In this document: one piece after another, positions 1-47,159 of the stretch
Numbering within the stretch: position 1 is the stretch's first letter
Layout: each line of letters starts with the position of its first letter
Assembly (NCBI GenBank): GCA_051294905.1
Contig: CM119373.1
Location: 1,118,001 to 1,182,000, forward strand
Source of the DNA: Botryllus schlosseri
Lineage: Eukaryota
DNA length: 64,000 bases
Direction: 5' to 3'
Translations under genes and position numbers: made by a program
The notes under the pieces: generated by a model
Seen by the model: the letters and a program-made list of their open reading frames with translations, nothing else
The model's database searches: none
Told to the model about the DNA's origin: nothing

Positions 1-490
1 CTGATTTATATGATCCCTAATTCGAAGGTATAAGGCATGACAATTTTCGCAGCTAACTCCAAAAAGTCCACCTCGTCGTCATAAAGTGCTTCTAAAAGCG
101 CTGGTGAATAAATTGTGAGTTTCGCTTTACAGCAGCGCGTGGGAATTCAAAAATCCAAACATATCATTTAAGTGGTGTATGCCGGTAAACCTAGTTTCAG
201 CTTCAAGTTTAAATCTGTCCAAAGCTTGAAACATGCATCGTCTAACTTCTTCAACAACACTGAGGCCAGCATTTTCTGATTGTTCGCCACGCATTCTCCT
301 TTTTCGGCGATTTCTCCGAACAATCGGCTATTTCGGAGTGGTTCCATCGCCATGTTAACATATTAATTCGTGTTTTCGGAATCAGCGCGACACCAGCTTT
401 CGATTGAGACCTGTTTGATTAAATTTTAGCTCGCGGGACGCCAGCTATAGGACTACCAATTACGTTCTTTTAGCCGGTTGTGTACACTGT

Positions 491-745
491 GCCGAGCGAG
501 ATAGTGTAATGGTGATGCGTCCGGCTTCTCGCTCGGTGGGTCGCGGGTTCGATACCCGGCCGGGTCAGACCAAAAACTCGAAAACTGGTATCCGCAGTTA
601 TCCCGCTAGGCGCTAAGCGATCACGGAGGAGAAAAAACGGGGGTGCAGACTAGATGACCTTACTATTAGGTGCGTATCGCATCTCCGTCGTCAAAGCATC
701 TCGATGGTGTAGGCGAAAAAGAATATCATATCTGTCTCTCCATCT
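491..745 (+). mobile_element. tRNA-derived SINE (Meta-domain-like core)
   Basis: Pol III A box TAGTGTAATGG (502-512) and B box GGTTCGATACC (546-556), then GGGTCAGACCAAAAACTCGAAAACTGGTATCCGCAGTTATCCCGCTAGGCGC, which resembles the MetaSINE core as I recall it. 3' boundary approximate. Confidence 0.7.
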
Positions 746-835
746 CTCACTGTGCAGCCTCATTTTGCCACCCCCTTGGAGCCTGGCGCCCCTGGCGCAG
801 AGCCAGAACCGCCAAGTGGCTGCTACGCCACTGGT

Positions 836-2270
836 CATGTGTACTGGAAATGGCCGTCCCGAGTATTTTTCTGCACAGAATCGCCGCGGCAGCCGCCCTC
901 TTAGTTCTGCCTATCCCGTCATAGAGTTGACTCGCCACCTCCGTACTGTGCGACGATGACATCGCTATATGATATTGTCCCTTGTCGTCTAGCGAACTCG
1001 CCATCATCGCGACTATTTTACGGAGATGCTGGTACGTTAGGCGGATTTCGTGGCGACCGAGATATTCGACGACACAAACCGATAAATTTCGGAACGGCTT
1101 GCCGTTCGAGTTTCGCAACGCTACCTCCTCCCGCGACAAATGCAAGTCTGGATTTGTTTGCTTGGATTTGTTTGCTTGCAAATCTGAATTCAAAGAGGTT
1201 TGAGACCACTCCATTACACGTTCATATCTTCGTAGCACCTACCTGTTTGAATCGGTCATAGTCTTGTTGACCCATTACTAACAAACCCCGATTTGAAGGG
1301 CAATTGTTGTGGTTCCCTGTACGACTAACATCGACGGATCGTCAACGGAACGGACCGCGTGGCCAAGCTCATATCCGGTCACTCTACGGAAATATGACGA
1401 TCTCGTGCCATTTTCGCGGCCAAGCAATCGCGCACGTTTTCGTCCGTTATCGGTTGATGAAGGTTTCGCTTTTGATCATTCTAAAAATAACACGCCTATT
1501 AAACTTCAAACTGTACGATATAAAATCTTGGTACGAAACTTTTGATATTCGGCCAATTTTCATTGATGTTCATGTCGAGAGACAAACGTTTCTCATGCTG
1601 GCGCTTTTTCCTCATATTGGTCGCTCTTGAGTACGTGACAATGATTTGTAACGCTCTTAGTTGGTTGTCCGGCGACACGTTATCCAATATCGCCGGATGC
1701 TGCAGACGCGCTAATTCCAGAAATCCCTTTAGCGACGCCAGGGTTTCGAAAATCGTGCTTGCGGACAGTCTTCCATCGGCGTTACAAATATACGTTACTA
1801 TTGTTCCGGCCCGTCTACCACAAACTTCTTGAAAACCAATTTCAGTTTGCTGACGACAATTTTTGTGTTTGCTTGGCAAGCGATTGCACTTGGCGATGCC
1901 TCTCGTACCTGTAACCAAGTGACACATTACTATCAGAGTTACTCACGCTTGAAAAGTCGGACTCGAAGGTCAACTTTTGAAAATTTCCCTTGTAGGTGTC
2001 GCAACCTACCCCAAAGCCGTCCCGTATTCTATCCGAATGGGTAATCCTCCGGTGCGTTGCTATACAGGCCGTGGCCACTGATCTCGAACAGAGAGCATAC
2101 CGAGACCGTGGGCGACATTGCTTGATGTCTTGCCTGGGCTCGCGCAAGTAGCGAGCATAGACGATATGATGCAAAGTGCTACCTGAGTGACACCTGCGCC
2201 GCCATACTTACGGCAACAAAAATGATCAGATGAAGCGAATGGAAACATAGCAACAAAATTTACCACAACA
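836..2270 (-). pseudogene. Tyrosine recombinase (integrase-family) pseudogene, intronless and frameshifted
   Basis: Stitched minus-strand frames give STIFETLASLKGFLE...LLGRENGTRSSYFRRVTGYELGHA (catalytic R, ~1398-1414)...ALRNSNGKPF...LTYQHLRKIVA (HxxR-type, 1017-1028)...IAMSSSHSTEVASQLY (H ~945-953, Y ~921-929). The order R..HxxR..H..Y matches tyrosine recombinases. 5' boundary uncertain. Confidence 0.7.
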
Positions 2271-2899
2271 CATGAACACTAAACCAAAATATCGCGTAGT
2301 AAATCGAAGCAACTTGATTTTTGTATAAAGAAAATGATAAAAGAAACTAATGTCTTTCAATATTCACGATACATAAATCCCGTCAGAGTCATGCTAGTGC
2401 CGGAGCTTACATATCCAGTAGCTTAGGTAGCTAGCATTCGTCCTCTTCCTCTTCCTGCAACGACGTCGCATGTTGATGTTCTAGGACAGGGGTTCTCAAA
2501 GGGTGGGCCATGGCCACTAGTGGGCCAGTTATTTGGGTGGGCCACAGAGCTATTTCTAAAATTGTAGCATTCGTGAAAGTTTGGTTGCATTTTATTTGTT
2601 CATATTAAAAAAGTATACTGATGTTATCGAATTTTCATCCGACTCTGAGACTTAGTGGCACGTATGTAGTCACGAATGTACAAGTCGAAATAGGAGGGGA
2701 TACGGCGGCTTTTGCCCCCCCCCCCCCCCCCGCTATGCCAACCTCCGGCCAACAGCAACGAAAATAATTTCGATTATATAACTGAAAGTTAATGCTGAAA
2801 TATCCAAGTATTCCGGCAGGGTCATAATGGATTGAGGAGTTAGCACAGCACATTATTCTTCGGAGTCGGTCAGCGGTAATCTTCAGCAACTAGTAGAGA

Positions 2900-3720
2900 A
2901 TTTGAGAGAACATTGCTCAATCAATCGCGGCATCGACAGGAAATTACCGCGATTCACCGCAAAAAAGGCAACAGAGCCCATCGAACGAACAACCAAGAAT
3001 ATTGATATCTATCTCACTGGATTGGTCCTATTTCCACCCACCTTCAAAAACAATTGATTTCCGCAGTCAGTAAGTGTTACGACACATTGAAAACTAATGT
3101 GATATTTACGATAACGGAACTGCTCCCTTCAGCATGCAAAGACGTGCTTCCAGCACTTCGAAAAAGTAACGTAGTGTATGAATTTAAGTGCCACTGTGAT
3201 TGTGGTTTCGTATCAAGGACGTCGAAGCATTTGCAGGAACGCATAAAACAGCATGTCCCTAGATTTATCAAAGTACGTGCGTGCATCACGCTCCGTGAAA
3301 AGCTCACCCTTGACTCATCCGCTTTAGCTTGACGTTGAGCGTTTAAAGGTCATAAATTCTGCCATTGGCAAACATCTGTTGGATAATGCCGCCTGTGCGA
3401 AAAATTATCGAGACGACATATTTCGCATCATCGTGAGGGGCCGCTCACGCTTTCATCTGTGTGCCTAGGGGTCGACCTTTATCAAAATAAATCAGCCCAA
3501 ACTTCGTCAACAAAAAGAGTTCATGTATCACCTTAAAATTGTACATTGAACGCTCTCTTGTCATGCTGGTAACGTCATATTTCGAGATACGATTGTTAAT
3601 GCACAAATGTTCTTGCCGACTCTCTACCAGTCACTGACGATCATCACTGACGAGTGTCAGCCGAAAATATTTGGGTTTCATTTCAATATGAATATACTAT
3701 ACAATTGTATATTGAAGCTC
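2900..3720 (+). mobile_element. Penelope-like retroelement 3' fragment (GIY-YIG endonuclease plus terminal repeat)
   Basis: ORF 3054-3332 KSNVVYEFKCHCDCGFVSRTSKHLQERIKQHVP continues after a break as SAIGKHLLDN...FHLCA.STFIKINQPKL.QQKEF, typical of a PLE GIY-YIG domain. The downstream sequence is shared with other copies in the window. Confidence 0.85.
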
Positions 3721-4799
3721 TGTGTCTGCAAGAAACTCTCTGGTCATATCTGTAAAATTTAGAATGAATTTAGTATTACCTAGGATATATAATAATAATT
3801 TATCACCCTCCCTAATTCGGAGAATTGGTAATGAAAAATACATTGTTTGAAAGCAATTTAGACCCCAAGTAATGAATCAAATATTATTGAATAAAATATG
3901 TTAGGTACGTCCGCCATAAACTCTGCTTTCAATGTATATGCTACTTACCACCCATACATCATATTTCTTTCTTAAATAGGATTGAAGGATTTAATGCATG
4001 ATTTACAGCGATAAAATGTGAACATCACAAATGAACCATGCTGAATTGAAAATCTTCGCGCCAAAACCAGGCTTGGCAGTTATCACCCAATAGCTTTCAA
4101 AATAAGTCGTGCGTAAAAATAAATTCATCATAATTTCTAACGTACTTCTGGTAAGTAACATATCATATCAAAGTTGGCTTCGACATATCTGTCCATGATA
4201 TGTTATTGTTTGTGTTATTATGTTAGTTATTCTAAATAACTTTACAGAAACACTGCTGAAACTAGCGCCAGTATTGATTCTGTTATACTGGAGCCGGCCC
4301 TCGGCTCCTGTGACTTGGTAGGCTAATGATTAGTTCTCTGATTTCAACGTGTATTTATAGTTGCCCTATAAGGACTACTCGTGCTGTTGAGTTGTCTCTT
4401 CTGCAATAAAAGTGTCGACATCGATGACACGAAAAAAATTCAGATTTTCGTACGGATGCACACGGATGCAGGGGACAAGTTACAAAAAAAAGTAGCCAGA
4501 ATATGTTTTTAAGGTATAAGGTATGGGAATCGGACTGAAAACCTGGACTTTTTAAAGTCGGTCAATTCTGAACAACCCTAATGTATATATATATATAATC
4601 TCGTCGTGACCACCAAGTTAGAGCCACTTTACTGGTTAATGGCTGTATTCAAGCAATCTGTCATCGTAATTTGACTATTTGAGAATAAGGGTGCGGTAAT
4701 GCTTACTATCTTTAATTAAAAAGTTGAACATTCCAGTTACAAACAAAGGCATGGATTAGGCTGGGATTTAGAGCCAGCCTTTGGCATAATTTTACTACT

Positions 4800-5470
4800 A
4801 ACTTTTGTATTTAAAATATCTTCAATATACAATTAAATAGTGTATTCATATTTAAATAAACCCGAATATTTTCGGCTGACACTCATCAGGGGTAATTGTC
4901 AGGAACTTGTAGCGAATTGGAAAGAACATTGGAAAGAACATTGTATATCAACAATCGTAACACAAAATATGACGTCACCAGCATGAAATTTCAAACGAGA
5001 AAGCGTTCAATGTACTATTTTTCAGGGGGTGCACGAACTCCTTTTGTTGACAGAGTTTGGGTTGGTGTATTTTGATAAGAGTCGACTCCAAGGCACACAA
5101 ATGAAAGTGTGAAGGGCCCCTCCCAACGACGCGAGATCTGTTGCATCGATAGTTATTCGCACTAATCGGATTATCTAATAGATGTTTGTCGATGGCAGAA
5201 TTAATGGCCTTTGATCTGTCAGCATCGAGCTTAAGTGGATGAGTTGAGGGTGAGCTTCTCATCGAGCCTGATGCACGTGTTCCCGTGTTCCATTTTGGTT
5301 TATGTGTTCCTGCAAACGCTTTGACGTTCTTTCTACGTAGCCAGAATCACAGTGGCACTTATATATACCAAAACTACATTACTTTGTTAAGTGCAGGGAG
5401 CACGTCTTTGCAAAGTGTCTGCAGGAACGCATAAACCAGCATGTCCCCAGATTTACCAGAACACGTGCAT
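4800..5470 (-). mobile_element. Second Penelope-like 3' fragment, inverted relative to the first
   Basis: ORF 4975-5262 NSAIDKHLLDN...HFHLCALESTLIKIHQPKLCQQKEF is homologous to ~3350-3550. The segment 5420-5470 is a short piece in the opposite orientation. Confidence 0.85.
4861..4892 (-). ncRNA. Minimal type I hammerhead ribozyme in PLE terminal repeat
   Basis: Minus strand reads CCC-CUGAUGA-GUGUCAGCC-GAAA-AUAU-UC-GGG: full core, CCC/GGG stem I, palindromic AAUAUU stem III, UUC cleavage triplet. Confidence 0.75.
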
Positions 5471-5789
5471 TTCATTTTATATTTATACTGATGTGTTACA
5501 CACTGGCTATGCTATGAGGAAACCTAGCCATTTCAATCTAGGAATGTGTTTTCGCAGTGAGACTATATTGTGATGATATCAAGGGACAAAAATTGATGCA
5601 ATAACGATGATGGTAGCAATAGTTTAACATTTTCAGGATAATTCTCATACTGATTATATATTATAGCCGGTTCTGCCTAAAATATTTCGCATCAAAATTT
5701 ATCGATGTTTTTATTCAGATCGATATCTTGTCAAGTCTCATAATAGACCTTATATATACTCAGCTTTAGGCATTTGGCGTTTTGAGAAG

Positions 5790-6620
5790 AATAATGGTAA
5801 TCAATTGACATTACGATGCATTCTGATACTGAAAGCCATACGTGTGAAGTTTGTGGAAAGGGATTTGCAGTCAAGTGTAGACTCGATGCTCATATTGCTG
5901 TTCATTCTGGTGTCAGAAGCCATGAATGTGGAATTTGTGGGAAAAGATTTACTGCCAAGCGTAGTCTCAATACTCACATTCCTATTCATTCTAGCGTCAA
6001 GAGCCATGAATGTGAAATTTGTGGAAAGGATTTGCTATCAAGGCTGATCTACATACTCACATATCTATACATGCTGGTGTCAAAAGCCACAAATGTGATG
6101 TTTGTGGAAAAGGATTTGCTCGGAAACCACACTTGAAGAATCATTTTAAAATTCATTCTGGTGATATCTGTGGAAAAGGATTCGCTTCCAAGCAGAGACT
6201 CAATACTCACATTCCTATTCATTCTAGCGTCAAGAGCCATAAATGTGAAATTTGTGGAAAAGGATTTGCTATCAAGGGTGATCTAAAAATACTCACATAT
6301 CTATACATGCTGGTGTCAAAATCCACAAATGTGATGTTTGTGGAAAAGGATTTGCTCGGAAACCACACTTGAAGAATCATTTTAAAATTCATTCTGGTGA
6401 AAAAAGCCATGAATATGATAACTGTGGAAAAGGATTTGCTTCCAAGCAGAGTCTCGATACTCATATTGCTATTCATTCTGGCATCAAAAGCCATAATTTG
6501 TGGGAAAGGATTTGCTTCCAAGCAGAGACTCGATACTCATATTGCTATTCATTCTGGCATCAAAAGCAATAAATGTGAAATTTGTGGGAAAGGATTTGGT
6601 GTGCAGCGTTTCTCAAGGTA
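5790..6620 (+). pseudogene. C2H2 zinc-finger array (~9-10 fingers), frameshifted
   Basis: Repeated CxxCGKGF...L..H...HSG.KSH units spread over several frames (ORFs 5816, 6019, 6369, 6397). Internal duplication ~5960-6160 / 6200-6400. Confidence 0.9.
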
Positions 6621-6729
6621 ACCTGATAATTTCATGACTGAATGGCTGGAATCCAGAACAAAAAGTTATTTTAGAACAGAACAGCTCTAGTGCTCAGTTT
6701 AATTATTATAGATAACTAACCTACGGATA

Positions 6730-7820
6730 GATGCCCAACACGTGATTCACGGTCGAACTTCTTTGAACAGGCGATTTAGAATCCGGAACAGAATTCAATC
6801 AATCTCAGGCTATAGTGGAAATTCTTCATGACTGGGAAATTGAAGATGATCGATTTGCGATGTGTTTCGATACAACAGCATTAAACACAGGAAAATTCAA
6901 AGGCGCGTGTATTTTGCTGGAAGCATTGCTGAAACGACCACTCCTCTGGACTGCATGCCGTCATCATGTTTATGAAGTGATTCCCGTCTTGTGTGCTTCA
7001 AGGCATATTCGGAAAATCGACTGGCCGATGTTGATGACGATTTGATTAAATCACGGGATACATTGAATCGAGAGGGTCACGTGATAGGAGAAAAGGCGAC
7101 GGAAGGTGATATGTCTTGTTGACACGAGCCAAATTGGATGAGATCAGTGGTAGTGACTACGGCCTTCGAGACGACTACTAAGAGTTTGCTCTTTCCAGTT
7201 GCTATCCTGACGAAGCACCGTTTTCCTACTTCAATTTCTGGAAACCAGGACCTCACCACAGAGCAAGACGAATGTCTACGGCAATTTATACTTGAAGATG
7301 CTGCTTCTTCAATACCAGTTAGGACTTGACGACAGCACGCTCATGCTGCTGTAGATGTTTTGTGATTTTAAAGCGAGTATTCGTGCTTATTGGCTGCAAG
7401 CTCCATCGGAGGCTGCATACAATGATTTATAATTTCACAAAAAATGCTTGGATTCTCAGTTGCCTCCGACCCACTGAGTGCATTTCTCAACACTGTAATC
7501 GCTGCATTCAATACCCACTTGTGATACTTATCGGAGGAGCTCATTTCCTTTGCTTTATGTTCGAAAAATTTAAATGCTGATGAAAAAGCATTGTACGGTG
7601 AACGAATCTATGATTCATATAAAAGGTGTATTGGTATATCAATATCAATGCCACCCCAGAAACCTGTTTTTCCAGCTGTTTCTGGCGATACCGAATTTCC
7701 CCATCTGGTGGGTGCCGACTCGACCATTATGTTCAAAATAGTTAAATTCAGTTTGGAGGACATGAAATTTATGCAACATCCCTCGTTGAGTTGGCCGAGA
7801 TTTCCAAAATATAAATGACT
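6730..7820 (+). mobile_element. Degenerate DDE transposase, hAT-superfamily-like (possibly hATm)
   Basis: AMCFDTTALNTG...GACILLEALLKRPLLWTACRHHVYEV shows a catalytic D plus the CxxH motif. The rest is broken by stops and frameshifts. Confidence 0.7.
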
Positions 7821-8169
7821 TGAAAATGTAGCGTCACCGTTACATATTGTAATGATCCAGCTGTCACGTCTTCCAAATAATCATCTGTAGCACGCAATGC
7901 CAGATTGGCACTCGAAAACATGAAACTCGGACAAGAAGCAAGAAAAGGTGCAGACAAAACCAGAAAAGCCAAAATCGAAGCCGAAGAAGCTAGCATCGCA
8001 GCTGAGCTTTCCCGATGCGTTCAATCACTCCCCGAATGCTGTTACCATTTATAAATGCGCTCACGTCAGCCACATTAATATGCCGGTTTCCGACACAAAT
8101 GATGTCGATTCGGTCATTCGGAATGATTTCCTAATGCGCTACCCCAGCAGTAATTATCTCCACAGATAG

Positions 8170-9140
8170 TCTTGCAAAACGGCACGAGCGACGACAAGCC
8201 TACTGGAGACTGTATCATAAGGAACACATACGTTGATGACATACTCCATTCATCAGATGATCTCGAGACCTCTATCGAGATCATCGAAGAACTGCGAACG
8301 CTTTTCGCACATTACGGATTCAATCGGACAAAATTTGCCAACGGTAGTTCTGCGATTATGTCACGGATTCCCGGAGAAACCCGCGCTTCCAATCTGGTTG
8401 ATCTCGACTTCGCGAATTCAGATAACTAGCGAACGTTGGTTGTTATCTGGAACGGGAATGAAGACACTCCGTGCACGCACTAACATCGTACCCAAGCCTT
8501 TCACCCGCAGAGGCATTGCAAGTCATATCACACAGATCTTTACCACATTCGGATACCTGAGCCCGTTCTTGCTAAGGCAAGGGCACACCAATCGACGATA
8601 GTTTCAGTGCGAAGTGGAGCAAATGCGTCGAAAGGCTTCCATTTCCCAGGTCTTACAAACCACCACGATTCTCGCTTGTGGAAATTCAACTACAGGCTTT
8701 TGCCGATGCTAGTAAATCCGGTTATGCAGCCTGCTGTTATTGTCGTCGTTTCGAGAACTCTGACAAATGACACGTCGACATTGCGCTCAGAGGCGTTTTA
8801 TAAGAAAGACGTTATGAAAGATGTTGACTACAATTTTGACACTGTTCACTACTGAACCAACAGTAACTCGGTGCTTCAAAGCATCAGGTGTATTTCGGCA
8901 CTTTCGTACATCAACGACTGCTCAAGATTCGTGCTCTGTCGCTAGTCGATCAATGGCGGTATGTTTCATCCGCCAATAATCCAGCGGATATTGACTCAAG
9001 TGGCGTAATGCCTCATCGTTGGCAGCTCGTAAGAATGAGGTTCCAGGGGCCGACTTTTTGCTCAAGCCTGTCGAATCATGGCATGGACACAACAAAGCTC
9101 ACCGTTCCAAAACAACAATCGAACCAGTGTTTTTGACTTT
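8170..9140 (+). mobile_element. BEL/Pao LTR retrotransposon pol fragment (RT end, RNase H)
   Basis: IIRNTYVDDILHS, KPFTRRGIAS, FADASKSGYAACCY (out of frame, ~8698-8740) and QWRYVSSANNPADIDS are BEL/Pao-type motifs. Confidence 0.85.
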
Positions 9141-9242
9141 TGTGTAATATATATGTAATGTGTGTAATATAATCATATAATATAATAATCCAGCGGATAT
9201 TGACTCAAGTGGCGTAATGTCTCATCGTTGGCAGCTCGTAAG

Positions 9243-9691
9243 TAGGGCTGGGCAAAATCGAGTACTTGAGTGATTCGATTCTGAATCACGTAATATGCTT
9301 CGAGTCGAGTAATCGAGTATCACTCATTATGACGTCATACCAGAATGTAATATGTAAAAGTTCAAATATGTACCCTTAACGTGACCACAAAGAATATAAT
9401 GGCTGTTATCCATCACATTAAAGATACTTTGGTATCTTTTCGACCATACCGATTCCATTGCACTTGGCGACAATGTTGTGAGTTGATCATGACTTCGGCC
9501 AATCAAGGTTTCAAGGCTTCAACAGTGAAAATTATTATCGAAACTATAATTCTCGTTGATAAATTAACTTTCAGCTGCGAGGACCATATAATTTCAGTAC
9601 TCGAAAAAATCGTATTTTACTACTCGACTCGAATCATTAAAATTATTACTCGATTCAGATTCGAGTACTCGAATCATTGTGCCCAGCCCTA
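9243..9691. mobile_element. hAT-type MITE
   Basis: TIR TAGGGCTGGGCA...TGCCCAGCCCTA with perfect 8-bp TSD CTCGTAAG (9235-9242, 9692-9699). The empty site is visible in the duplicated copy near 9025. Confidence 0.92.
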
Positions 9692-10591
9692 CTCGTAAGA
9701 ATGAGGTTCGAGGGGCCGACTTCTTACTCAAGCCTGTCGAATCATGGCATGGACACAACAATCGAACCAGTGTTTTTGACTTGTGTGTTTGTGTAATATA
9801 TATGTAATGTGTCCTAAGCAATTACCAAATCCCAGATTTTGGCATAATGATTTGAAATTACAGTAAGGTATGCCACATTACCAGTTGATAGGCAAAAAGC
9901 AGAAGCAGCAACCTGTTGTTCATACAATGTTATCCGAAATGTCTTACTACACATATACAAGACAGATCAGATATTATTTATATAACAGTACTTACTCATT
10001 GACTGCATCATCTGGAAAATTTATATATATTTATATTTATACATATTTTCGTGTCCATTGATATTCCCCTTTTAGTTATGGATGATATCGTAATCGTCAT
10101 TTCCAACAAAGCATACTGTGTATGTGTAGCTAAATTTAAGCACTATGCCGATACCTTTAGCAAAACATTACGACACAAATATAACCATGCATAGTACATA
10201 TCGATTTGCGCCATGTTCGTATTCTGGAGACTCCTAGGTAGCAAGTAGGTAGCTAGCAGTCTTCATGACGAAAAATGTAACAAGAAAAAAATGTTTAGGC
10301 TCCCTATGCCAGTCATTATTTGTAACTTTCTCCTGTTCATTTCCAAGACTAGGTTTCTTAGTGTAAGCGGTCATCTAGATATGGCGAAATTGGCTATTTG
10401 TACGGGCACTTTAGGGTGAAATAACTCAAAATAATGATGTAATTCATTCATTTGCTATCTGGTACCACATATCAAGACCCTTTTTTGAAATTCAAAATTT
10501 TTCATTTTTCACTCCACCCTACTGTGGAGCTCACGTTTTATGCACATCGCGGTCATTGTTTTGAATAGTAATAATGGTCTTCGATTTAGAC

Positions 10592-12521
10592 CAGTGTTTC
10601 CCAACCCCGAGTCCGCGGGCTCATTTGAGTCCGCGGAAGGTCCTTGGTGAGTCCGCGAACACAGGAATTTTTGGTAACTTAATCGGCACACACAGTTGAC
10701 AGATTGTCGACTTGGTATTTCCTCGTGTTTTTCAATGGAAAGACGCCAGTCTCATAGCGAATTTAATAGTTTAGGTAATTTTATATCGATAAAACCTTGA
10801 GAAACGATCGTGGATCCTAATTTAGGGGTCTGCTTACTTAGTTTCAGATTGAGAAGTCGAAAATCCACGGAAATATCAAAATTTTCAATCTTTTCTTCCA
10901 CTTCCGATATGATTTCGGAACGTGTAATTGACAGACCTACGGGGCTCGTTCACTTTCGGACCAAAGTCATTGCAGCCTTACGGATAAAATAGCTTTTTGG
11001 TCCGAAAGTGAACGAGCCCCGTCCTGGTCCGGTTTCGTCAAATTCCGATTTAAGATTAGGCTGCATGATTCGCAAAATACCAAATTCCGATTTAAGATTA
11101 GGCTGCATGATTCGCAAAATACCTATGTTGATATGTTAGTAACCTTAATAGCTGTCATCAAAAAAAATGCATAGATACCTCAAATATGTGACTGGCGCCA
11201 CTCAACCGGAATAGTGCTTTCAGAACTACATTCATTGCAGTAGAATTTATTACCTCGGTGGCTTTTCGGGTTTCCCTTATCAAGAATTAACGGCACCATA
11301 AAAAGGAGAATTAACGGCACCATAAAAAGGATAAAGAGTTTGTATACAATCTTTAAATATTCCATTAATATATTCCGCTGATTGTCTGTGTAACGACTTC
11401 TGAGTATTGTATAATTTGATTCTCTCTTATCCCTTTATTATGACTACCGGAGTACCGGTACAGCTGACTTTGGACAGCTACCGTTCCTTTTTATTATTGC
11501 ATTGTTACGTCAAATTTTGCCAATTTGGATTTCGTTTGAATCTCTTGAATCTGAATGCATGAGCAGAGATAGCATAAAAAATTTACAGCTATATATATGC
11601 AATTCCCGATCATGTTGACCGATTCAGTCATGGATTATGGAATATTTTCGCGCTTCGCGCGGTTTATTCGAAACAAGGCGGCTAACTGAACGGTACAAAA
11701 ATTTCGCTGAGAAATAGCGGTAAAAAGGTATCGGACGGGGGGTCTGGGGGTAAAGCCCGCCAGAAGTTAGGTTTATCGCCCTGTGGGGCCCAAGACCAAC
11801 GTTTTGCTATTGAAGGGTGGGGGGGGGGCTGACGAAGTGCTGTTACGGTCCTGCACATAGGCACATTGCACAGGTTTCCGGCGCGATATACGCTGAGTGT
11901 TGGTAATTGATTATGGCGACTTGTTCATTTACAGACTATTTGGAAAATGACAAATCGTAGGGACATGTGCTAATCACAGAAACAATCTATAGTTGTCTAT
12001 TATAAGTAGAACTCGAGATGTGGACTGCATTACTGAACAGTTGCTTGAATTGCAAAGCCGACAGATGTGGAAAGACAGGTTTAAGAGAGCTTCCTTGACT
12101 CAATTTTAGCCAAATGTGCAGTCGATGAAGCATAGTCTTTCAGATCTTTGTTAGCAAGTTGCAACAGCTCTTTTGCTATTTCCGACCACATCACCTTCCT
12201 GTGTGAATCTGGCTTTTCAACTCTGACGATGAGCAAAAGAAGTATAGCAATAGACTTCAACCGGAAGATGACATCAGATGTAGGCCTACATTGACAACCA
12301 TAATTCCGGAATTCCATAAACTTGTCAAGCAAGATCAAGGACAAGGCTCCCATTGAGTGTGGGTTGAGTGAAAAACAGTGCTTGCTTTTTTGTTGATACC
12401 GCATTACACTCTCTTGGATAGAAATCAAAAAAACTATTTTTCGGTAATATATAGCTTGAGTCCGCGGATATACTGGCGGGCTTGAGATGAGTCCGCGGGT
12501 CAAAAAGGTTGAGAACCACTG
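10592..12521 (+). mobile_element. Non-autonomous hAT (Buster/Charlie-like) element
   Basis: CAGTG...CACTG termini, perfect TSD ATTTAGAC (10584-10591, 12522-12529), subterminal GAGTCCGCGG repeats and a transposase C-terminal remnant (FPTT..CESGFSTL..SNRLQPEDDIRC..QGQGSH*) at ~12170-12357. Confidence 0.9.
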
Positions 12522-12699
12522 ATTTAGACTGATGTCTTGGTTATGAATAAGTTACGATGGCCTTTTTCTGAGACAAGCGAGTCTCAGTTTCAAGCGATAT
12601 GGGTTTAGGTTTGAGTAGGTTATGGTAAGCATATTTCGTTTCGAATCGATTTTGCAGCAGAAAAGCCTCGAAGACCTAATGTGTGGCTTTGCGAGGAGA

Positions 12700-12900
12700 G
12701 GAGTCGGATTGGCGGCGATTCCCAGAGCGATGCGAAAAGGTATTCTGAAAGACCTTCATGCTGGTCACAGAGGCATTTACAGTTTCAAAGCGCGAGTCCG
12801 GTTAATTGTGTATTGGCAATATATGAATGAGATCGAGTGGTCATGCAAGACAAGTCATATCAATTATGCATAAAAGGTCGTCCACCATACAAAGACTGTC
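12700..12900 (+). mobile_element. Gypsy-type integrase zinc-binding (HHCC) fragment
   Basis: AIPRAMRKGILKDLHAGHRGI...KARVRLIVYW.YMNEIE..CKT in ORF 12622-12873. Confidence 0.7.
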
Positions 12901-12955
12901 CAAACCTACAGAGCCAGTTGAGCATCTTTCCATAATAAATTACGCATTCGAATTT

Positions 12956-35974: not shown

Positions 35975-37520
35975 CTACGCAGATGAAAAGTGCAATCTTA
36001 TCAGCTGCTGACGGATCGCAGAAGCTTGTGCGTAGTCTGTACACTGGCCTTGTGGTGTAGAATCACTAGGATCCATTCCATCATCTGTAAATTCATCAAG
36101 TGATGCCTCGATCATGCCACGTTGCCTGAGAAAGTTGTATATGCAGACGCAGGCTGGAATCACGTTCAAAGTTGTGTCGACTTTTAACCTCATGCCTGTT
36201 TTCAGGCAGGAAAATACTCGCTTCAAAACACCAAACGCGCGTTCGATTGTCAATCTGGTCTTTTTGTGGCTTCTGTTGTAACACAGCTCAGGCTCACGCA
36301 AAGGATTGCGTAACGGTGACATTAGATAAGTAGTCAATGGGTAGCCTTGGTCGCCAAGCAACAGTCCATTTGAGGTCGACTGGCTTTCCAGATAACCATA
36401 TAATGCAGAATTATGGAATATCCTTGCATCATGTGTCCGTACCATTTTGCACAAATGTTCGTAAAGACGAGTCTTGCATCACATACAGCCTGAAACATGA
36501 ATGTATGTATTAGTATTGTGAATTACTATTCTATACATCACTTGCATCACTGGACAAAAAAAATTTCATTAAATAGTTATTTTTAAACCACAACAAACAC
36601 CCAAACCAAATTGTATGGTGTAACGTCATGTTTTGTTTGCTAGGAATATTTGCATTATCATCAAGGCAGCAACATAATATGGGGGCTCAGTGTAGTTAGG
36701 CCTACTTATCAGCAACAGCATGACCAATTGACTATCACTAGGCAGTGTTCCCCATGAATATGTCAAAATTTATGGCATTTATGATTGGGTTAAGGTTGCG
36801 GTAGAGGTAACGGTAGAATGTTCCTATCATACCCTATACGAATTATAAATTATAATTATTTTAGTGCAGGTGTTGCCGATATACATCATTATAAACTTCG
36901 GTTATGATATTCACCTGGCAGTTTATGGAAAAGTAACCTTTTCGGTTCCTGAGCCGTTCTGCATTTTCACCACCTGGGCTCTGGATGCGAACATGAGTGC
37001 AATCAATTGCACCTATTACATCTGGAAATGATGCAATAGAGTAAAATTCTTCCTTTACACTGTGCAAGTTCATTTGTGGCCATCGTACGAAAGTCCCTAT
37101 ATTACCAACTATGACGGCCGAAACCTGTGAAAAAAGTACTGGATTTGCAAAAGAACAAACAATCAATCACTGTCAATTCATTACCTCTTTGATCACATTA
37201 GATACAGTCGGCTGCGAAATACCTTCCAAATCAGCAGAAAGCAATTGGAATGACCCACTGCTTGTGAAGCGTAGGAATATGAGCATCTTATGCAGTATTG
37301 GTAGGGCAACACCTTTTCTAGAATGCCTGAAGTCATTCTGAATGACTGCAATAAAGTCATGAAGACCTTGTTTTGTAAAGCGATACCGTTGTCTAAATTC
37401 CGCATCTGTGTTCTTTTCCATCGGGTTCTGCAAATCCGCCAGTCGACGTTTTGGCACTCTTTCAACAGCTTCGCCATCATATTCCTCCTCACAAAACCTC
37501 ATAAACTCCAAAAAGTCCAT
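35975..37520 (-). pseudogene. Harbinger (HARBI1-like) DDE transposase, 3 exons, one frameshift
   Basis: Exons 37520-37185, 37124-36915 and 36489-35975 with GT-AG introns in phase 0. Motifs FRQRYRF, GAIDCTH, NRKGYFSINCQ, THDARIF, LLGDQGY, TIERAFGVLK. Frameshift near 36437 (WYG/THD). Confidence 0.92.
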
Positions 37521-39601
37521 GTTATCGTCAGCAGTCGCCCAATGCATCTATCGGGAACCCGGACAATGATAGATTATTCCCCGATTTCGGAGACTTGCAT
37601 TTTAACAGTATCTGGGTCTCACAAAGCGCAGAAATTGATTTCATAATACCATCGCGGCTCAGGTGGCGCTCGGTATTACGAGAGTCGGCGATGTGTGACC
37701 GCAAGTAATGCCCGTCTTACAAAAACACTATTTTAATACGAAACAGAGGATAACTTCGCAAATTATCCTTAATTCGAGTGTTACATTCGTTTCGTAATAC
37801 GGGCATTAGTGTAGCTTTATTTTCGGAAAATAGAGGCATTACTACACTTGCTTATATGCTTCAACGTGTATCTTCTGCAGACAAAAGAACTAAAAGTAAT
37901 TCGAACTTGAAGTATGATACTTGCATTGAAATACAAATACCACTTCTTAAAATCGGAAAATACATTGCATGTCTTTTGTCCATAAAACTTCAAAGGTGAT
38001 CTGCTAAATCAGGTGTAACGTTCAAAAAAGCTGGATTTTCCAGATAAGCATAGGTAATTGCTAGATTGCGAATCGGTAGTTTTAAACGTTATGGTGGGCC
38101 ATATTTACTGTGATGAAATATTTGATATGGGCGACAATGCGGTGTGATAGGAACCAAACAATCCGGTATCTAAATTATATTCACTGATACTTTCATCAAA
38201 ACATATTTGTCACTTCATCACTACTATGCGCGAAGCGCAACAAAATTTCTGGGCTTTACTTGACTTTTATAAGTATTAAATCTTGATCCTCCGTGAAAAC
38301 AGCCCCGAAACTTCTCAGGCTAGCTTTCGTATTGGGGGATAAAACTACTTCTACTTGATAAAATGAAAATAGCGAAAAGTAAGTAAGTAGATCACAAAAT
38401 ATTACGAAGTCAAAATAGAAGTAGAGAAAATCATATCTACTTGAGTAAGTACCAGAAGTAGAGCAGAACTACTTGAGTACTTCCAAAAATAGAAGTACTT
38501 CGTTACTGACCACCTCTGACCGTTACTGTATTGTAGCTGTTCTTGGGAGAATTTAGTGTATCATTGTCAGTTTATTAATATTTTCATCGTTTCAAAACAC
38601 TATACAAAACTGCGATACAATGAAAGACATAAGGCGTCGAAACGAGTTGGAGCTTGGAGTAGTCATTGAAATCAGACACCCACCTTGGCATAGGTAAAGT
38701 AGAAAAGAGGAATGCCCACCGAATGAAAACTAAAGCAAAGAATATGAAAGGAAAGCGACAAAATGAGGTGGCATGGGGCGGAAAGCCAGATCGATATGTT
38801 AGGTCGTGGTCCGATAATCTGACTAGTATTCTAGTGTGTATGTGTGCGTGACTATTGTTATGTCTTTGTACAATGCATGTCGATCGCTGCTTCATCGCAA
38901 TGTTTTTTTTCCAATAACGCTTTGTGCTTGGTATTGTAGCATGGTACGAATGTTCGACTATATTTTCAGACTGCGCATGATTGTTTCCTGACATGAAGGA
39001 TTGTTTACCGCGGCGAACCGTCCAAGATCGCACCGTCGTAATCAATATTCACATTTCCATACACCAAATCGCCCTTGAATGCGTTAGCCGATAACGACAA
39101 ATCTTGTATTATTGCCGCCTTAAAAGATGGTTCGCTTGCAAGATTGAAAATATTAGGAATGAAATTTACATATCTCAATATATTGAAAATACGTCCTACT
39201 GGAGTTGATAGCATGGCGGGTAGAGTTTGATTCGTTGTTTGTGATATTCATGGGGCTTGTAGACTACTAATACGGTCATTTACACCAGGATGGTTTTCGT
39301 CATTTGTGTCCCTTAGCTACCGACTTGTAGCACTGCCCACTTCTGAGCTTCTAGAAGGCGTCGCTTACACGGATTATATGAAAAATAGGAGCCGGATCAC
39401 CGATTCATTGCACCACTTCACAAGCGATTGTGGACAGAGACAATGGGAATTTGGGTCGCAGGCTATAATCACTCAGCAAGTACGTCTATTTGCCTAGAGA
39501 TAAGTTTTTTATCACTCGAATATAACGCCAAATATTCCCAAACTCATATTCAGTGAAATTAAGCCATTCCACCAATATCCTACGTAACGAGGCGAACTTT
39601 T

Positions 39602-40282
39602 CCGATACGTCAGCGTACAATGGAATCGAGTATCGTATAGTTCTCAATACAGGAACCACATCGACGGAAGAGTCACGAGTCAGAAGAAAATGACTACGTT
39701 GATATAATTAATCCAAACAAGTATTTTAAACCCCGACTGACATCATCGTATCACGCTAGATCGATCACGGCTGATTTATGGCCATCACTTGCCAGCGCAA
39801 TTAATCCACCAGTAGCATGTAAAATTTAAAACATCTGTTTCCGGATAAGCGTAAATCCAAATGTAATCCAGTAAAAATCATCCAATACGCTGTACTCCAA
39901 TCCGAATTCACGCTTATATGTATAGTATACGAGCCCCCGATTCGTCGGCGTACAATGGAATCGAGTATCGTAGTTCTCGATACAGGAACCAGATCGTTGT
40001 AAGAGTCACGAGTCAGAAGAAAAAATGACTACTTTGATGTAATTGATACAAACGAGTATTTTGAACTCCGACTGACATGATCGCATCACGCTTGATCGAC
40101 CACGGCTGATGATTTCATGGACAATGGACATCATTTGCCAGCGAAATTATTTGGCGAGTAGCATGTAAAATCCACAAATCCGGGTCCGGATAAACGTAAA
40201 TCCAAAAATAATCCGGTAAAGATCCTCCAATGCGTTGCTTTTCCATGCAAATTGACGTTCGTTTGTACCGTATACGAGGCTC
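39602..40282 (-). repeat. Diverged tandem duplication (~340-bp unit) within a decayed orphan ORF
   Basis: 39602-39935 and 39938-40282 share CGTACAATGGAATCGAGTATCGTA...GAGTCACGAGTCAGAAGAAAA...GGATAA.CGTAAATCCAAA. Confidence 0.85.
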
Positions 40283-41056
40283 GCTGCTGGCACATACGCC
40301 ATCTACTGTCCTGAGCTGCGGCAAGTAGCTTTGGACGACGTCAACAACCGCTTGAACATGGCGGCTAGCAAGTAGCAGCAATCGAACCCCATATGATTAT
40401 TCAAAACTGTATGCTTACAATCATATCAATGTGATATACCATGGACTCAATGACACAAACGAGTTTGATTTGATAACACGTGCACCACACAGATAGCTTG
40501 CAGTCACACTCGATTGAACCGGAAATCATCGATCGAGAGATCCAAGAGAAATCAGAGTACACACCATAGAGATCAAGAAAGATTCGATGATCATACGTGG
40601 AAAATTACAGCAAAGAATACGATAACTTCGATATTACTCGCTTGATAATAAAATTATATTCACCGCAAACGAGTTTTGACACGCAGATAGCAACCTTACT
40701 CAATTCCAGAAAGCGCGACACGATAGGACAGCCGGGTTTTGAAATCAACAGGCAGAACCAGTGATCAATCCACTCATAAATAACGAGTCACGCCACAACC
40801 GCGAGAATTACGTCACAAATATTACACCAAACTCATTTCAAACGGAAATCAAACAGCCACATATCAATCAGATCGCTTGCAGCAATCCGTCACGAACTGC
40901 AATTCTGCAAAATGCGTAAGTCCGTTATCCTTTGTTTCTTTATTTTATTAGAGATTTTAGTTTCTTTAAGTTAAAAGACGATATGCGTCTATATCCACCA
41001 TTTCTCTACTACTGACATTTTCCGGAAACAACAACCGGCTTGTAGTAATAAAGTAA

Positions 41057-41505: not shown

Positions 41506-43199
41506 TTAGACCAGTGGTTCTAAACCTTTTTTTCTCCAGCGCTCCTTTCAAAAAATATCAATTCAGATTCAAGTATACTCGAATTATTGTACAAACTACT
41601 GGATTTTCAAAAAGCTCAACTATAGAACTATACCCGATTCAACTGAACACCGCCGAAAACCACGACACATGATTTCTAGTTGTTCGGCAACTAATATTTT
41701 TTTTTCAAATGTGCAACTAGAACTAGAACTACTGAATTTCAAAATCTGTAACTAAAACTAAAACTGAACTTTCACAATTAGCAACTAGTACTATTACGCC
41801 TACTCAATTCTCAAAACCTGCAACTAAAACTAGATCTTTGAACTTTCACAAATAGCAATTCTACAACTGCTCAATTCTCGAAATCAGTAACTAGAAACTC
41901 AAAACCGTTATTTAGTTGACAATCAATCTATACTAATTTTTTAGTTTTTGCAAGTCTGTGCCCATCTGGCCCTCTCTCAAATCTCAATATAGAAATGTTT
42001 CCTAACCTCGTCTTCGCGTACAAGGGCGAGAAGGATGCCAGCCATATATGCATCGCATGCTTCAGGCAGTAAGGACTGCATGCTTTGACTTCACCAGATT
42101 TACTAGTGGCGTAACCAGAATTCAGGTTATCCAGACTACCGATTACCGATATCGAAGGTTACCAGTCACTAGTAGCGTAACCGATTTCTGGTGTCAAAGG
42201 TTACTGGAGACAGGTAAACCTCCTGCCACTGCCTGAATTTTTCTAACAGTCTGGAATTGCGCCGTAGTGGAATAGTACTTGACTTTCCATTCGGACTGAT
42301 TGATATCGAACATTTTTACGTGTTTTGAATCAACGTGGTTGCAATCAATACAGGTAGCACGTGTTTTCATCTCTAACCCTTAACCGCGTCAGTCCATTAA
42401 ATCATTTCGTGTTATGAATCGGAACGATAAGCCATGCAAACGGGTTCTTCTACATGCAGCAATATGCGAGAAAATTGGCGACCGTATTAAACGCCTCTGG
42501 ATGGTGGATGTTCAGGAGCAGCTCAGCAGGTCTCCAGGTGACAGTGCGAGACCATGACGGAAGACAGGCTGAAATTTTTACATCACCGACGCCTCTCTAC
42601 GACCTTGACGGCCATCTTGGACTAATTGTACCGCCTATCGTGAATACTCATGCGGTATACCATTATGATAATACATTACGCTATGGTGTTGTAGCTGGGC
42701 CGCGGTCGTCAATCTTATACAGGGAGAGAGGCACGACGCATGTTGTTGACCCGCGCCGGTGTTTACTTCATCAATAATGAAATAGCGCAGACAATGGACA
42801 TTGTGGCGCACATTAACCTTATGTGAGTATTAATTAGCGGCGTCATCGACGAGGTACTATATTTGAAGGTTCTGTCGAACTGACGCTGCGCTGCCACCTA
42901 GACTGGCGTGTATACTAGGAGCCAGGCGCGCCGCACCATGGACCGCACAACTCCATGCTGTCAGTCAAGGTTATACGGAATTCGACAAGAAACCCCCGTT
43001 TGGCGAATGGGAGTTCTATCTCACGGGCAAGATGGGCTACCCGGTCTTACTCAGTCTCGTGAATAGGAGCTGCCATCAGTGGCCGCAGACTGTTGGCGTT
43101 CGTCACCATCGCGCTCTCTTGGCTTGACGCAAGCGTCTTCGCTCGGCTAGCACAACGGCGGACGAAGGCTTTCAAATGATAAACGAAAGCAATCGGGTA

Positions 43200-43871
43200 T
43201 GAGCGCTACTCTTATATTGGACAAATGCTGACTAGGGCTCAGACTATGGCGTGTCTTTTCTGCGCGGTTATTGAGGCTCGCGGCAACGGACTTTCGCGCC
43301 ACATTTCATTTTCAAGAGGACGCCGGTAGCGGGAAAGACCTTGCTATGTGATATTTCATTCCCGCCGCGTATTTCCAGTCTAGTTCCGCACGATGCGTCG
43401 GGTGTGGGTCAGTTACACATGGACTCACACTCTCGCGTGTTGAAATGCGATGACGCAGGTCTATATTTTTGGGGTCATTCCGGCATGATGTCGGCCGTTG
43501 AGCAGATGTTCCATGGGTCATGGTCGGCCAAGACACGCGGGTCGAAACAAGCCAACGGTTTAACTGTGGTCGAAGCTACCACCAATGCGCCTGACCCATT
43601 CACGTTACTGGTTGAATGTGGAGAAAATCGAGAGGCTTGGGAAAGACGTTTTCTAGTGTTCGAATTAACCGGACATTTTGTCCCGCGTCTCAGTAGCAGG
43701 CCGATTTCTAGCGCGACGTGCGAGTTAATATTAGACCGACTCGTAGCCGACCTCGTCCGCGCCGGCATTGCGGGCCTAGAACAAGACTTATGCGCCGATC
43801 ATTTTCGCACGGTTTCCGATTACCACGCCTGCCTCACCAACATGATGATGGCCGTATCAGACTATAGATAA
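43200..43871 (+). pseudogene. Superfamily 3 (viral-type) helicase, frameshifted at Walker A
   Basis: FHFQEDAGSG|KTLLCDI (Walker A, 43304-43350, one-base shift), VLKCDD (Walker B), MFHGSWSAKTRG (B'), VEATTN (motif C) and AWERRFLVFEL (Arg finger), with the compact SF3 spacing. Confidence 0.75.
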
Positions 43872-44057
43872 CTAACCTACGGATAGATGCACAACACATG
43901 ACTCACGGTAGAGTGATGCGACAACAGCAGAGTTGTTGTCGCTTCATGGCATGAAACGGGAGCGTAATTGCTAATCCCACTGATAACGACCCAAGCACTC
44001 AAATTAAATATAGTTGATCTTATTTGAAAGCTACAGACACGCTGATTCTTATAATAT

Positions 44058-45296
44058 ATGGTACGTTGTATTGGAACATACAATTATAGTCAGGACCAAC
44101 TGGTTACATTACCTCATGTTCCTTTCAGACGAGACGGCCTAGAATTACTGGGCAGAGCAACTTGATTGCCTGCCCCGGATTAAACTGGTGGTTCGCCGGT
44201 ATCAAAAGCAAGACCATATTATTGAATGATCTATATTAATAAAGACTACATTCTATGATGACTTTTCGATAGTGCAAACGGGGACTGCTCGTCTATGTCG
44301 ATAATAAATAACCACAAACCAAGGTTAGGTGCTAACCATCTGTATTTTGGGTGGATAACCCCTTACCGGTATGTTGATGTTCGCGAGTGGTATACGGGAA
44401 ACGCACACACTTCATCAGGCTAATGCCACCCCCGTCCGGTACGATAGCGGTATGTCGTCACGATGGTCAAGCCACTGCCAGTTCCGGCGTTGATTACTAA
44501 TGTTCAAGTGGAGCGACTGTGCCATTTACGGAAAAAAGATGGACGAATACGCCGGTATTCCGGAAATATGCGAGATTGGTGGGTTGATCAAGGAAATACG
44601 TAAGCTCACCGACGAATGTGTGGACCGTGGCCACGACAGACATACTGATAAGGAGTAAGTGCTGCTTTGTATAGTACTTGTATAGACACGCCAATGGTGT
44701 GTGTTGAGTTAGTATAATATGCAGCTATCATGGATAATGATAGGCATAATGTTATGTTACAGCTCGATGAAGGACGACTCATCAGTCGATATGGGATTGA
44801 CTATCTCTACTGTAGAAACACGCAGGTTTGTACACACAGTATATCGCTTGACTGTCCTGTACACGGTATTATTAAAAAACGATCGTGCGTTTAGTTGGGA
44901 CCCACAGCTTTCCACGGGCGGAGCGGGTGGTACCGACCGTGCCGAAGATGAATTGTGAGCATTTATTATACGATAACATTTATAATGGTGTCGACAATCA
45001 CTAAAACATTGCAGCGATGAACCCGTGTCCGACCAAGGGGAGCCCCGTGCCGTGGCGGCTCATATCGGCGAGCATGGTACGTCGTATTGGAACATACAAT
45101 TATAGTCAGAACCAACTGATTACGTTACCTATGTTCCTTTTAGACGAGGCGGCCTACAATTACTGGACAGAGCAACTTGATTGCCCGACCCGGATTATAC
45201 TGGTCATTCACCGGTACCAAAAGCAAGACCATATTGTTGAATGATCTATATTAATAAAGACTACATTCAATGATGACTTTTCGATAGTGCAAGCGG
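44058..45296 (+). repeat. Pair of ~225-bp paralogous orphan coding segments
   Basis: 44058-44281 and 45074-45296 are direct, diverged copies (…NYW.EQLDC..RI.LV..RYQKQDHI.E). Confidence 0.85.
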
Positions 45297-47159
45297 GTCC
45301 TGAACAGACGGCAAGCTGTCGTCAGTCAATGCGAGCATAATTATTATGAATGGTTTTCCTTGCGTAGTTTGCGCAATATTGCACAGAAACAGTCGCAATC
45401 AATAGCTGTCGACACAACCTCTACCACATTTAAATGTTCACCTTTACAGGAGTGACGCGATCCTCAAAACATACGCATTGATGCTAGGAGTCATTCGACG
45501 AAAACATGCTGTGTTATAGCTAGCTTGTAATTACTGACACAGAGTTCCTCAAAACGAAAGGCTATATACGCGTCGACTGACCATAGAACACACATGCGCG
45601 ACTATATGTGTATGTCAAATCACCTCAGACTCCGTACACCATCACCAATAAGACAGCAGCGGGTCTATATCCTATGGAGGCGTACACCTGCGTATCGACA
45701 TGTGGACGGGTAATATCAACCACCAATCGTCGCTGAGGAACAAGTAGTCAGCTATAGTTGAATGTAGTGCTTGTTATTCGTTGCTCGTGAATGCTGACGT
45801 GATATTCGACCACTCTATTACTCGTATATATATTTACTAATGTATGGGAACCAGGAAAATATACAGGATCAATATTCAGGCATAAGTGTAACAACAGTTA
45901 ACATTGTCGTGTATTATCTATCTATAGGTATCGGAATGATACGTAAACGAGAATAACATGTCCATGGACGTATAACGTATATATAACAAGATGTGTTACT
46001 GGCCTTCAATGTGCGTATCCATTAGGTGTGTGTGTGCCCATAAGGAGTCCGTGCTAATAGTTACCGGTATCCAGCCGGTGGGATGACATTCGATTCGTGC
46101 GTCTACCTGGAGTGTTGTGCTAGCGATAAAACTCCACTGTACTGTGCCCTTACCACAGTGTACATGTACATTTGCAATCGCCCGTGCCTTCGCTACTTGT
46201 AAACATGTAGTTTTGTATTTCAACGTGTTGTAGTAACACCACAGTGTGTGGATAGGTCGTGTTAAATGTTCATGATAACATAACGAACGTATCTGCTCAG
46301 ATTTGTAACGGGATGATATACTGTTAATGGAGGAGTATACCGATCGGTAAGTCGTTGTTATAGTTATACAACGTATGTATATTCATGCAACGGATTAAAT
46401 GTACCGTCCCGTGCAAACACCGGTATTGTTATGTGTGGATGGTGACGTGCTGCCATCGCGACCAACCCGACGATAAGTTAATGCTACCCATCGACGAATT
46501 GGTATCAACATGGACGCAGGTACGCGGTCGTGCAGACCCGACTTTAGGCATTATATCAGTTATATACGTCTGGGACCGGTGACTGACGACTAGTGTGACC
46601 CGCGTGTACTCTAAGGTGGCGTGGGCACTCGAAAAATCACGTAACTGTCACGCCAAGAGACCCTCGACGACTTTGTTAAAAGGCGAAGTCGCTATTGCTT
46701 TTCGTTGATTTTAACTATGTTCCATTTCGAGTTGGGTGACATAATTTCGCATGGTATATTTTGATGCTGTCATATCACGCTGTACCAAGTTTCAAGACTA
46801 TGGCTTTATGACTAGCGTATCTAGTAGATCAGCGCGCACCGATATATTGTCGACTTTGATAACGGAATTACTATGATAATCATTGAGTGACGATACTGAA
46901 ACTTACTGCGAAGCTGCATAACACAACCATGCCAAATTTCGTCATCCATATCGGTATGAAACCCTTTAAAAACTCACAGATACAAATATCAAATTTTGCG
47001 AAAATTCCATTAGGCGGTAGGCTCATTACGACATCAGCGCACGCGGACCCTTGATACTCGATATGGGACCTTAACTCGGAGTGGGAAATCTATTATAGTC
47101 GATTCCAGTATGGTCGACATCAAGAGTAGACCCGTGAACTAGTATTGAAGTCCAGTCCA

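Follow-up and report, generated by a model that had tools for sequence, protein, structure and literature searches.

Parvoviral NS1 and CRESS Rep proteins combine HUH motifs I-III with a following superfamily 3 (SF3) helicase, Cryptons carry a stand-alone tyrosine recombinase (YR) gene, and foldback elements are built of long inverted repeats. Vertebrate Mavericks (Polintons) are described in PMC8097293 as having 5'-(AGT)2//(ACT)2-3' ends and perfect target-site duplications (TSDs) of 6 bp, and a gene for an inhibitor of apoptosis (IAP) is annotated in one adintovirus genome (bioRxiv 10.64898/2026.07.28.741253). In this report, we compare these systems with a 64,000-bp stretch of the Botryllus schlosseri genome (C3:1118001-1182000 of a 495.5-Mb assembly; hereafter the window), in which a sequence-only reading had taken a tyrosine recombinase, an SF3 helicase, an IAP, an immunoglobulin (Ig) protein and several orphan open reading frames (ORFs) for remnants of one integrated virus. 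With a probability of about 70%, positions 1-46600 are instead a nest of transposable elements (TEs) that juxtaposes fragments from three or more mobile or viral lineages unrelated to one another. Pieces of virus-like elements of two known kinds, each an unusual variant, are present in the window, namely an arm of a Maverick/Polinton-type palindrome (element P) and a parvovirus-like NS1/Rep gene (hereafter Rep), together with a recombinase-like remnant whose linkage to Rep is real but unexplained.

The observations of the sequence-only reading are partly confirmed and its interpretation is partly supported: the ORFs that it noticed exist and virus-derived DNA is present in the window, but this DNA stems from two or more unrelated lineages that differ in age and not from a single integrated element. 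Copy numbers are lower bounds throughout, the genome search having scored the best candidates only (for example, 40), and gene matches within 50 kb of each other are called co-occurring. The P and Rep parts appear independent because their ages differ (copies 92-99% alike for P and 72-89% for Rep) and because no Rep match falls in the 50 kb around any of the 39 other scored P ends, the closest being 51 kb distant. A tblastx comparison of the window with 21 related loci likewise argues for independence, since beyond TEs the common parts were only the YR-like gene, Rep and a non-coding repeat, family B. Neither this comparison nor that of P ends with Rep matches revealed another locus combining all parts; of the proposed co-occurrence, the YR-like gene and the helicase were indeed found together at other loci, and the IAP was not found with the helicase.

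The palindromic element P and its IAP gene

Positions 29743-41013 (+), from an inner end at 29743 to an outer terminus at 41013, appear to be a solitary arm of a young element of the Maverick/Polinton family. The inner portion (29743-32560) has 556 candidate copies, of which the 40 scored are 94-99% identical, and the outer portion (38400-41013) has copies of 92-99% identity dispersed on many chromosomes; on other chromosomes the two portions lie about 1 kb apart, mostly as inverted pairs. Short copies of P are giant palindromes of 12-16 kb overall, consisting of two ~7-kb arms and a 150-430-bp spacer. In the window, a nested insertion of 4.8 kb (33013-37811) interrupts the arm. The sequence-only reading had joined 28870-32560 to 38520-40400 across such insertions, and the joining itself stands, 29743-33012 and 37812-41013 being contiguous in other copies, whereas 28870-29744 is the end of another repeat.

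The window copy is a single arm, and the TSD evidence comes from other copies. The four full copies that were read are all flanked by 6-bp TSDs (CCTACC, CTTGCT, TATATT and, with one mismatch, AGTGCC/ACTGCC) and have the ends 5'-AGTAGTAGAG...CTCTACTACT-3'; ...CTCTACTACT closes all eight termini read as well as the window terminus at 41013, and the end motif is 5'-AGTAGT...ACTACT-3'. When the terminal 163 bases were used as query, 78 candidate termini were obtained, and the 40 that were scored, including the window's, fall into 16 inverted pairs with spans of 12.1-39.1 kb and eight single ends, of which the window's is one. In its 6-bp TSDs, terminal inverted repeats and 5'-(AGT)2...(ACT)2-3' ends, P resembles Mavericks; it differs from them in that the window holds one arm only and in that the common form of P is a near-perfect palindrome devoid of the core genes. 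The two long inverted arms with their short spacer also recall foldback elements, but the ends and the TSD length point to a Maverick integrase and not to a classical foldback family.

Neither polymerase nor integrase was found by a Pfam scan of the window arm. Candidate core genes were seen in a larger relative, a 39.1-kb pair of P ends at C7:29901528-29940618, whose termini are 85-86% like the window's and of which the middle 26 kb was analysed. It encodes an rve integrase (PF00665, E 4.4e-13) with a chromodomain, a BIR ORF (E 1.9e-18) and a frame of ~1290 aa in which DxE, Nx3YD, Yx3D, DxxALY, Kx3NSxFG, TDTDS and KxY can be read, by eye, as the Exo I-III and Pol A-C motifs of a family-B polymerase. 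The combination of putative family-B polymerase motifs and an rve-chromo integrase between the same ends would be a further likeness to Mavericks/Polintons. Several unassigned ORFs of 155-544 aa are also present in this relative; Pfam recognizes none of those of 425, 299, 238 and 155 aa, and a PDB search with the sequence of the 425-aa ORF gave no match either.

The IAP recognized by the sequence-only reading is a broken three-BIR gene at 30244-31470 (-) (PF00653, E 1.6e-17 and 4.6e-28) with indels and in-frame stops, and no RING finger was found in its translation. It is intronless, as had been claimed, and is 96.6-98.6% identical to three other copies with two to three gap openings; one of these three keeps a 408-aa open frame. 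An IAP gene is shared by element P and, according to its annotation, one adintovirus genome, and a term search of a paper library found no paper joining Polinton with BIR domain. The outer modules of the arm (38400-41013, +) comprise orphan ORFs at 38584-40396 (-), which are without a Pfam family, a tandem duplication (39602-40278) and the terminus.

Our data suggest a model whereby 29743-41013 represents one lone arm from a Maverick/Polinton-family element, each arm of which would carry an intronless three-BIR IAP gene and unassigned ORFs. The palindromes, having no polymerase or integrase, could depend for their movement on autonomous relatives that supply, in trans, the rve integrase generating the 6-bp TSDs, and the IAP may block host-cell death while the element or a virus replicates. 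A Maverick lineage that has an IAP gene and yields palindromic derivatives with ~7-kb arms is of interest in itself.

The parvovirus-like Rep gene

According to the modelled fold of an intact paralogue, 42251-43847 (+) is a broken NS1/Rep-like gene, with a putative HUH nuclease and an SF3 helicase, of a parvovirus-like lineage. The nuclease-like part (42418-42777) is degenerate, and the match is interrupted by three TGA and one TAG; the SF3 helicase that had been noticed from the sequence is a P-loop ORF at 43275-43871 (+). The SF3 alignment contains GAGKTLL, KVDDA, ITTN and RRF, and the window copy keeps VAGKT, KCDDA and ATTN. Eight to ten DNA paralogues of the window copy, all broken, show 72-89% identity; a protein search of the genome gave 45 matches, some with frames of 403-563 aa, at 29-74% identity, and the family is present at about 30 loci. 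For an intact paralogue, the AlphaFold model (pLDDT 61) has AAV2 Rep68 as its best PDB match (E 1e-6 over 420 columns, both domains), and residues 237-475 match the SF3 helicases E1, NrS-1, Rep40, NS1 and D5 with Z scores of 10-11.7, versus 9.1 for ClpA. In a viral structure library, the top matches of the model were densovirus/parvovirus NS1 and CRESS Rep. The Rep relatives carry the HUH motifs I-III (RxRxWAFTT, HxHGII and YxxK) followed by the SF3 helicase, and the folds closest to the paralogue model are those of AAV Rep68/Rep40, B19 NS1 and densovirus NS1.

The lineage is nevertheless distant from curated parvoviral sequences, and no Pfam NS1/Rep model fits it: no such family was returned at E values up to 1-10, Pfam and a PDB search by sequence gave nothing relevant beyond the P-loop, and sub-threshold DUF5906 matches appeared in five of 40 distant family members. 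A profile search covering 1.84 billion representative proteins matched only 86, one of which, XP_039269095.1 from the ascidian Styela clava, is uncharacterised; a single-sequence protein search with Rep gave one match. Scans of IMG/VR with three Rep relatives found no relative. A Rep/capsid lineage near parvoviruses that has no curated sequence model and is this rare in public data is of interest.

Further likeness to parvoviruses comes from the neighbouring genes. In a metagenome set of 25 Rep loci on contigs (stretches of up to 11 kb), an ORF beside Rep carries the parvovirus VP1 phospholipase A2 (PLA2) domain, PF08398 being above cut-off in three of five tested and the PLA2 motif being present at nine of the 25 loci. 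These contigs also contain piggyBac and Pao elements and are therefore animal DNA. In most of these loci (L048-L072) Rep has the PLA2-capsid ORF directly upstream, and in L054 it has it downstream, an order that fits head-to-tail copies or a circular genome of ~5 kb; the place of the capsid gene in most loci, immediately upstream of Rep and on its strand, is a difference from parvoviruses. In B. schlosseri itself, a capsid-like ORF with a glycine-rich stretch lies directly upstream of some Rep copies, and its nearest Atlas clusters are capsids of single-stranded DNA (ssDNA) viruses (0.91-0.94); such cluster neighbours count as leads only, not as identifications. No capsid-like ORF was found in the window and no PLA2 in the own-genome Rep loci examined.

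The window copy also differs from parvoviruses in having neither a capsid gene nor terminal hairpins. The sole candidate palindrome was considered as a parvoviral hairpin and rejected: it is the 602-bp sequence at 33297-33898, which also lies directly 5' of a Rep paralogue on C1, and it is a foldback miniature inverted-repeat transposable element (MITE) with 2032 candidates at 97-98% identity. Positions 38560-38820 and 39224-39374 were likewise set aside as a conserved 3' part of Rep; similar sequence is found downstream of it in L002 and L005/6 and upstream in L032, and they are probably a small independent repeat.

The window Rep subfamily begins with MANE, and its conserved pieces lie in different frames (L035:2517-4166, L025:755-2790 and window 42418-43871). 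In the place of the HUH motifs it has WW.F and G[HR]LGLIV, the HUH histidines not being kept, and the loss of the histidines together with the displaced frames suggests introns or domestication. The description of all ORFs as intronless is accordingly doubtful for the helicase gene, whose paralogues hold conserved peptide pieces in different frames. The window Rep might be no viral insertion but a dead duplicate of a multi-copy, spliced host gene descended from a viral NS1. Paralogues that are 49-51% alike in protein keep frames of 304-454 aa, three have the MANE N-terminal piece and also a second conserved stretch lying in a different frame, an exon-like layout, and no capsid gene was found at the window-subfamily Rep loci examined, all of which would suit a host gene as the missing histidines do. 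Most copies are broken, however, and they lie in repeat-rich islands beside other mobile genes; moreover, parvoviruses splice their transcripts too. We regard a host-gene origin as unlikely. We favour the reading that 42251-43847 is a dead NS1/Rep copy of a poorly known parvovirus-like lineage, which may have entered the genome often or been duplicated within it.

The recombinase-like gene and its linkage to Rep

The third fragment (836-2207, -) would be a dead copy of a tyrosine-recombinase-like family, with three broken ORFs (747-1238, 1499-1942 and 1842-2207). Its region 836-2157 has 31 DNA matches of 64-89% identity, and the window ORFs show 43% and 36% aa identity to ORFs of a longer paralogue at C1:13.17 Mb. 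The block ...YQHLRK...SSSHS..VA...YDG is invariant in four family members, with a spacing that fits HxxR...H...Y; in the longest paralogue TGTR, TKSK, QHLR and SSSHS-x7-Y can be recognized by eye, the last three of which are kept in the window copy. The nearest Atlas clusters are integrases (score 0.95, again a lead only). A profile search of a protein database gave two unnamed matches, and a search among longer proteins gave none. Taken together, the gene is probably a recombinase. As in Cryptons, a YR-like gene stands alone, the Pfam-scanned ORFs nearby having no reverse-transcriptase or long-terminal-repeat match, and the longest paralogue shows the order R...K...HxxR...H...Y; the family differs from Cryptons in that its copies also occur in tandem near contig ends. 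Twelve copies in tandem, repeating every ~17.7 kb and all equidistant from the window copy, occupy about 16-213 kb of C30, and further copies lie near contig starts (C3:16364, C3:24714, C4:24203, C22:30144, C9:7604 and C49:8750). The array and the contig-end copies may represent a subtelomeric repeat unit.

Rep is followed in the window by family B (44051-46611, +), a non-coding low-copy repeat with an insertion at about 45407-46225; some copies of the family contain 137-bp tandem repeats. Rep, family B and the YR-like gene tend to share genomic islands.

Several observations weigh against the interpretation of the window as fragments of unrelated lineages, or against its component assignments. 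The Maverick assignment depends on termini, TSDs and a single larger relative; in that relative, the ~1290-aa frame has only a sub-threshold Pfam match (Pox_F12L, E 0.0012) and nothing relevant in a PDB search by sequence, no capsid, ATPase or protease was recognized by Pfam or a PDB sequence search, which is a difference from Mavericks/Polintons, and the interior has nothing in common with the window arm except the BIR. The tyrosine recombinase claimed by the sequence-only reading is present as YR-like ORFs, but it has no PF00589 or DUF3504 match in Pfam, in which it differs from Cryptons as well, and its profile matched no solved recombinase in PDB. Finally, Rep and the YR-like gene co-occur far above chance: with the Rep-rich stretch C3:4.7-9.3 Mb set aside, five of 15 Rep loci have a YR-core match within 50 kb (10.6-42.2 kb; binomial 1.4e-7), or four of 14 (5e-6) if the C1/C5 duplicate described below is counted once; family B directly follows Rep at C3:8.88 Mb as it does in the window, and it adjoins the YR-like gene at several loci. 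This linkage fits a larger composite unit.

Such a unit could be an undescribed integrating element of ~10-45 kb with Rep, family B and the YR-like gene and without the IAP, in which a parvovirus-type Rep replicates and the tyrosine recombinase inserts, the window copy being old, rearranged and riddled with TEs. About six further loci within the C3 cluster also pair Rep with the YR-like gene; at C3:8.88 Mb, Rep, family B and the YR-like gene have the same orientation within 9.4 kb, with the Rep-then-B order of the window; and a block of at least 21 kb with all three parts is 99% identical between C1:13160860-13179755 and C5:20756497-20777899, its 403-aa Rep frame differing in one residue. This block may have been duplicated recently or may itself be a mobile unit of very large size, and it contains common repeats, which fits segmental duplication. 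The order and orientation of the parts follow four arrangements among the loci, and at C3:8.88 Mb the YR-like gene and family B are 97-98% like the C1 copy and Rep only 88%, indicating that the parts differ in age. In addition, none of the 25 metagenome Rep loci has a YR-like ORF, though many have a capsid gene, the contig with the largest YR array has no Rep match, the YR-like gene occurs in contig-end and tandem arrays, and neither termini nor TSDs were found for the proposed unit. Matches of Rep, the capsid-like ORF, family B and the YR-like gene at C3:6.59-6.84 Mb recur at 8.41-8.62 Mb with a constant offset of ~1.8 Mb, which points to a large segmental duplication within the Rep-rich region. 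We therefore hold a composite element to be improbable on balance, and we are more doubtful still that the linkage reflects an undescribed animal mobile element in which an ssDNA-virus Rep is coupled to a tyrosine recombinase for insertion and of which the window holds a decayed, rearranged copy. The association is statistically strong and structurally loose; if a single element did underlie it, this would show an ssDNA-virus replication module living within an animal chromosome in a new way.

The original proposal, that all segments including the IAP, Ig and orphan ORFs derive from one large integrated DNA virus, is very hard to sustain: the parts are adjacent, with the P terminus at 41013 only 1.2 kb from the Rep start at 42251, and IAP genes occur in large DNA viruses and, by annotation, in at least one adintovirus, but the IAP/orphan part forms a family apart, with termini and TSDs of its own and much younger than the Rep copies, three of the segments belong to common repeats, no other locus in the comparisons above unites the parts, and the 100 kb of C1 that surround the closest Rep paralogue contain no IAP or Ig sequence. 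The proposal had itself reported no capsid, polymerase or termini for its virus, and likewise a Pfam scan of the ORFs and a check for a capsid-like ORF found no capsid or polymerase in the window, and no termini of such a virus were found there. Neighbouring fragments of a TE nest are easily misread as one giant virus, and here copy number, age and termini separate them.

High-copy repeats and other features

In the TE-nest reading, the remaining backbone would consist of ordinary high-copy repeat and one single-copy Ig-like ORF. Positions 1-835 belong to a dispersed repeat (5217 candidates, 40 scored), other full-length copies of which end at ~835 and are 88-92% alike, and the proposed backbone segment at ~1-480 lies inside it. 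Two more such segments, 20190-21350 and 22300-22650, fall within one unbroken young repeat: the query 19900-22800 was wholly repeat, uninterrupted over 19900-22752 (2168 candidates, 40 scored, 92-99%). Positions 28870-29744 are 99% identical to copies such as that at C12:12892497, which lies only 4.4 kb from the C12 copy of the 19900-22800 repeat; because of this proximity, we infer continuity through 22800-28870 and thus one large young TE extending from 19900 to 29744 (92-99% identity). The three segments ~1-480, 20190-21350 and 22300-22650 are best read as ordinary TE, as are the initial 875 bases of a fourth. RNA reads over 600-19900 showed no splice joints, and 91-98% of them continue into unlike sequence, that is, they are repeat-derived.

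The insertion nested in the P arm (33013-37811), after which arm sequence resumes at 37812, consists of the 602-bp MITE and a Harbinger, whose genes had been correctly recognized: Pfam finds a Myb-like gene (Myb_DNA-bind_5) at 34174-34485 (+) and DDE_Tnp_4 at 35975-37547 (-). A MITE-like, high-copy repeat of ~200 bp, often in inverted pairs, occupies 43851-44058 and has many matches of 87-92%.

The Ig protein of the sequence-only reading exists as an ORF at 12827-13423 (+), but its Ig-like domain is weak (Ig_2, E 0.0054, 17.4 bits, below the cut-off of 27). Region 12956-13470 has no other copy in the genome, and RNA depth was 0 over 12836-14123 in all four runs (6-13% of each read). The ORF is single-copy and has no link to the other parts. 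A direct repeat of ~770 bp (82% identity; 13474-14248 and 47160-47925), which flanks most of the studied region, begins 50 bp past its end. Pfam has no match for a 222-aa ORF at 17374-18042 (-) that combines a Ser/Thr-rich region, a single hydrophobic span and a basic tail; its RNA depth was very low (about 1-1.6 in one of four runs). Finally, a C2H2 zinc-finger array (zf-H2C2_2, E 1e-13 to 1e-15) runs across overlapping frames at 5801-6569 (+); it has internal tandem repeats and resembles either a zinc-finger gene in decay or cargo of a TE.

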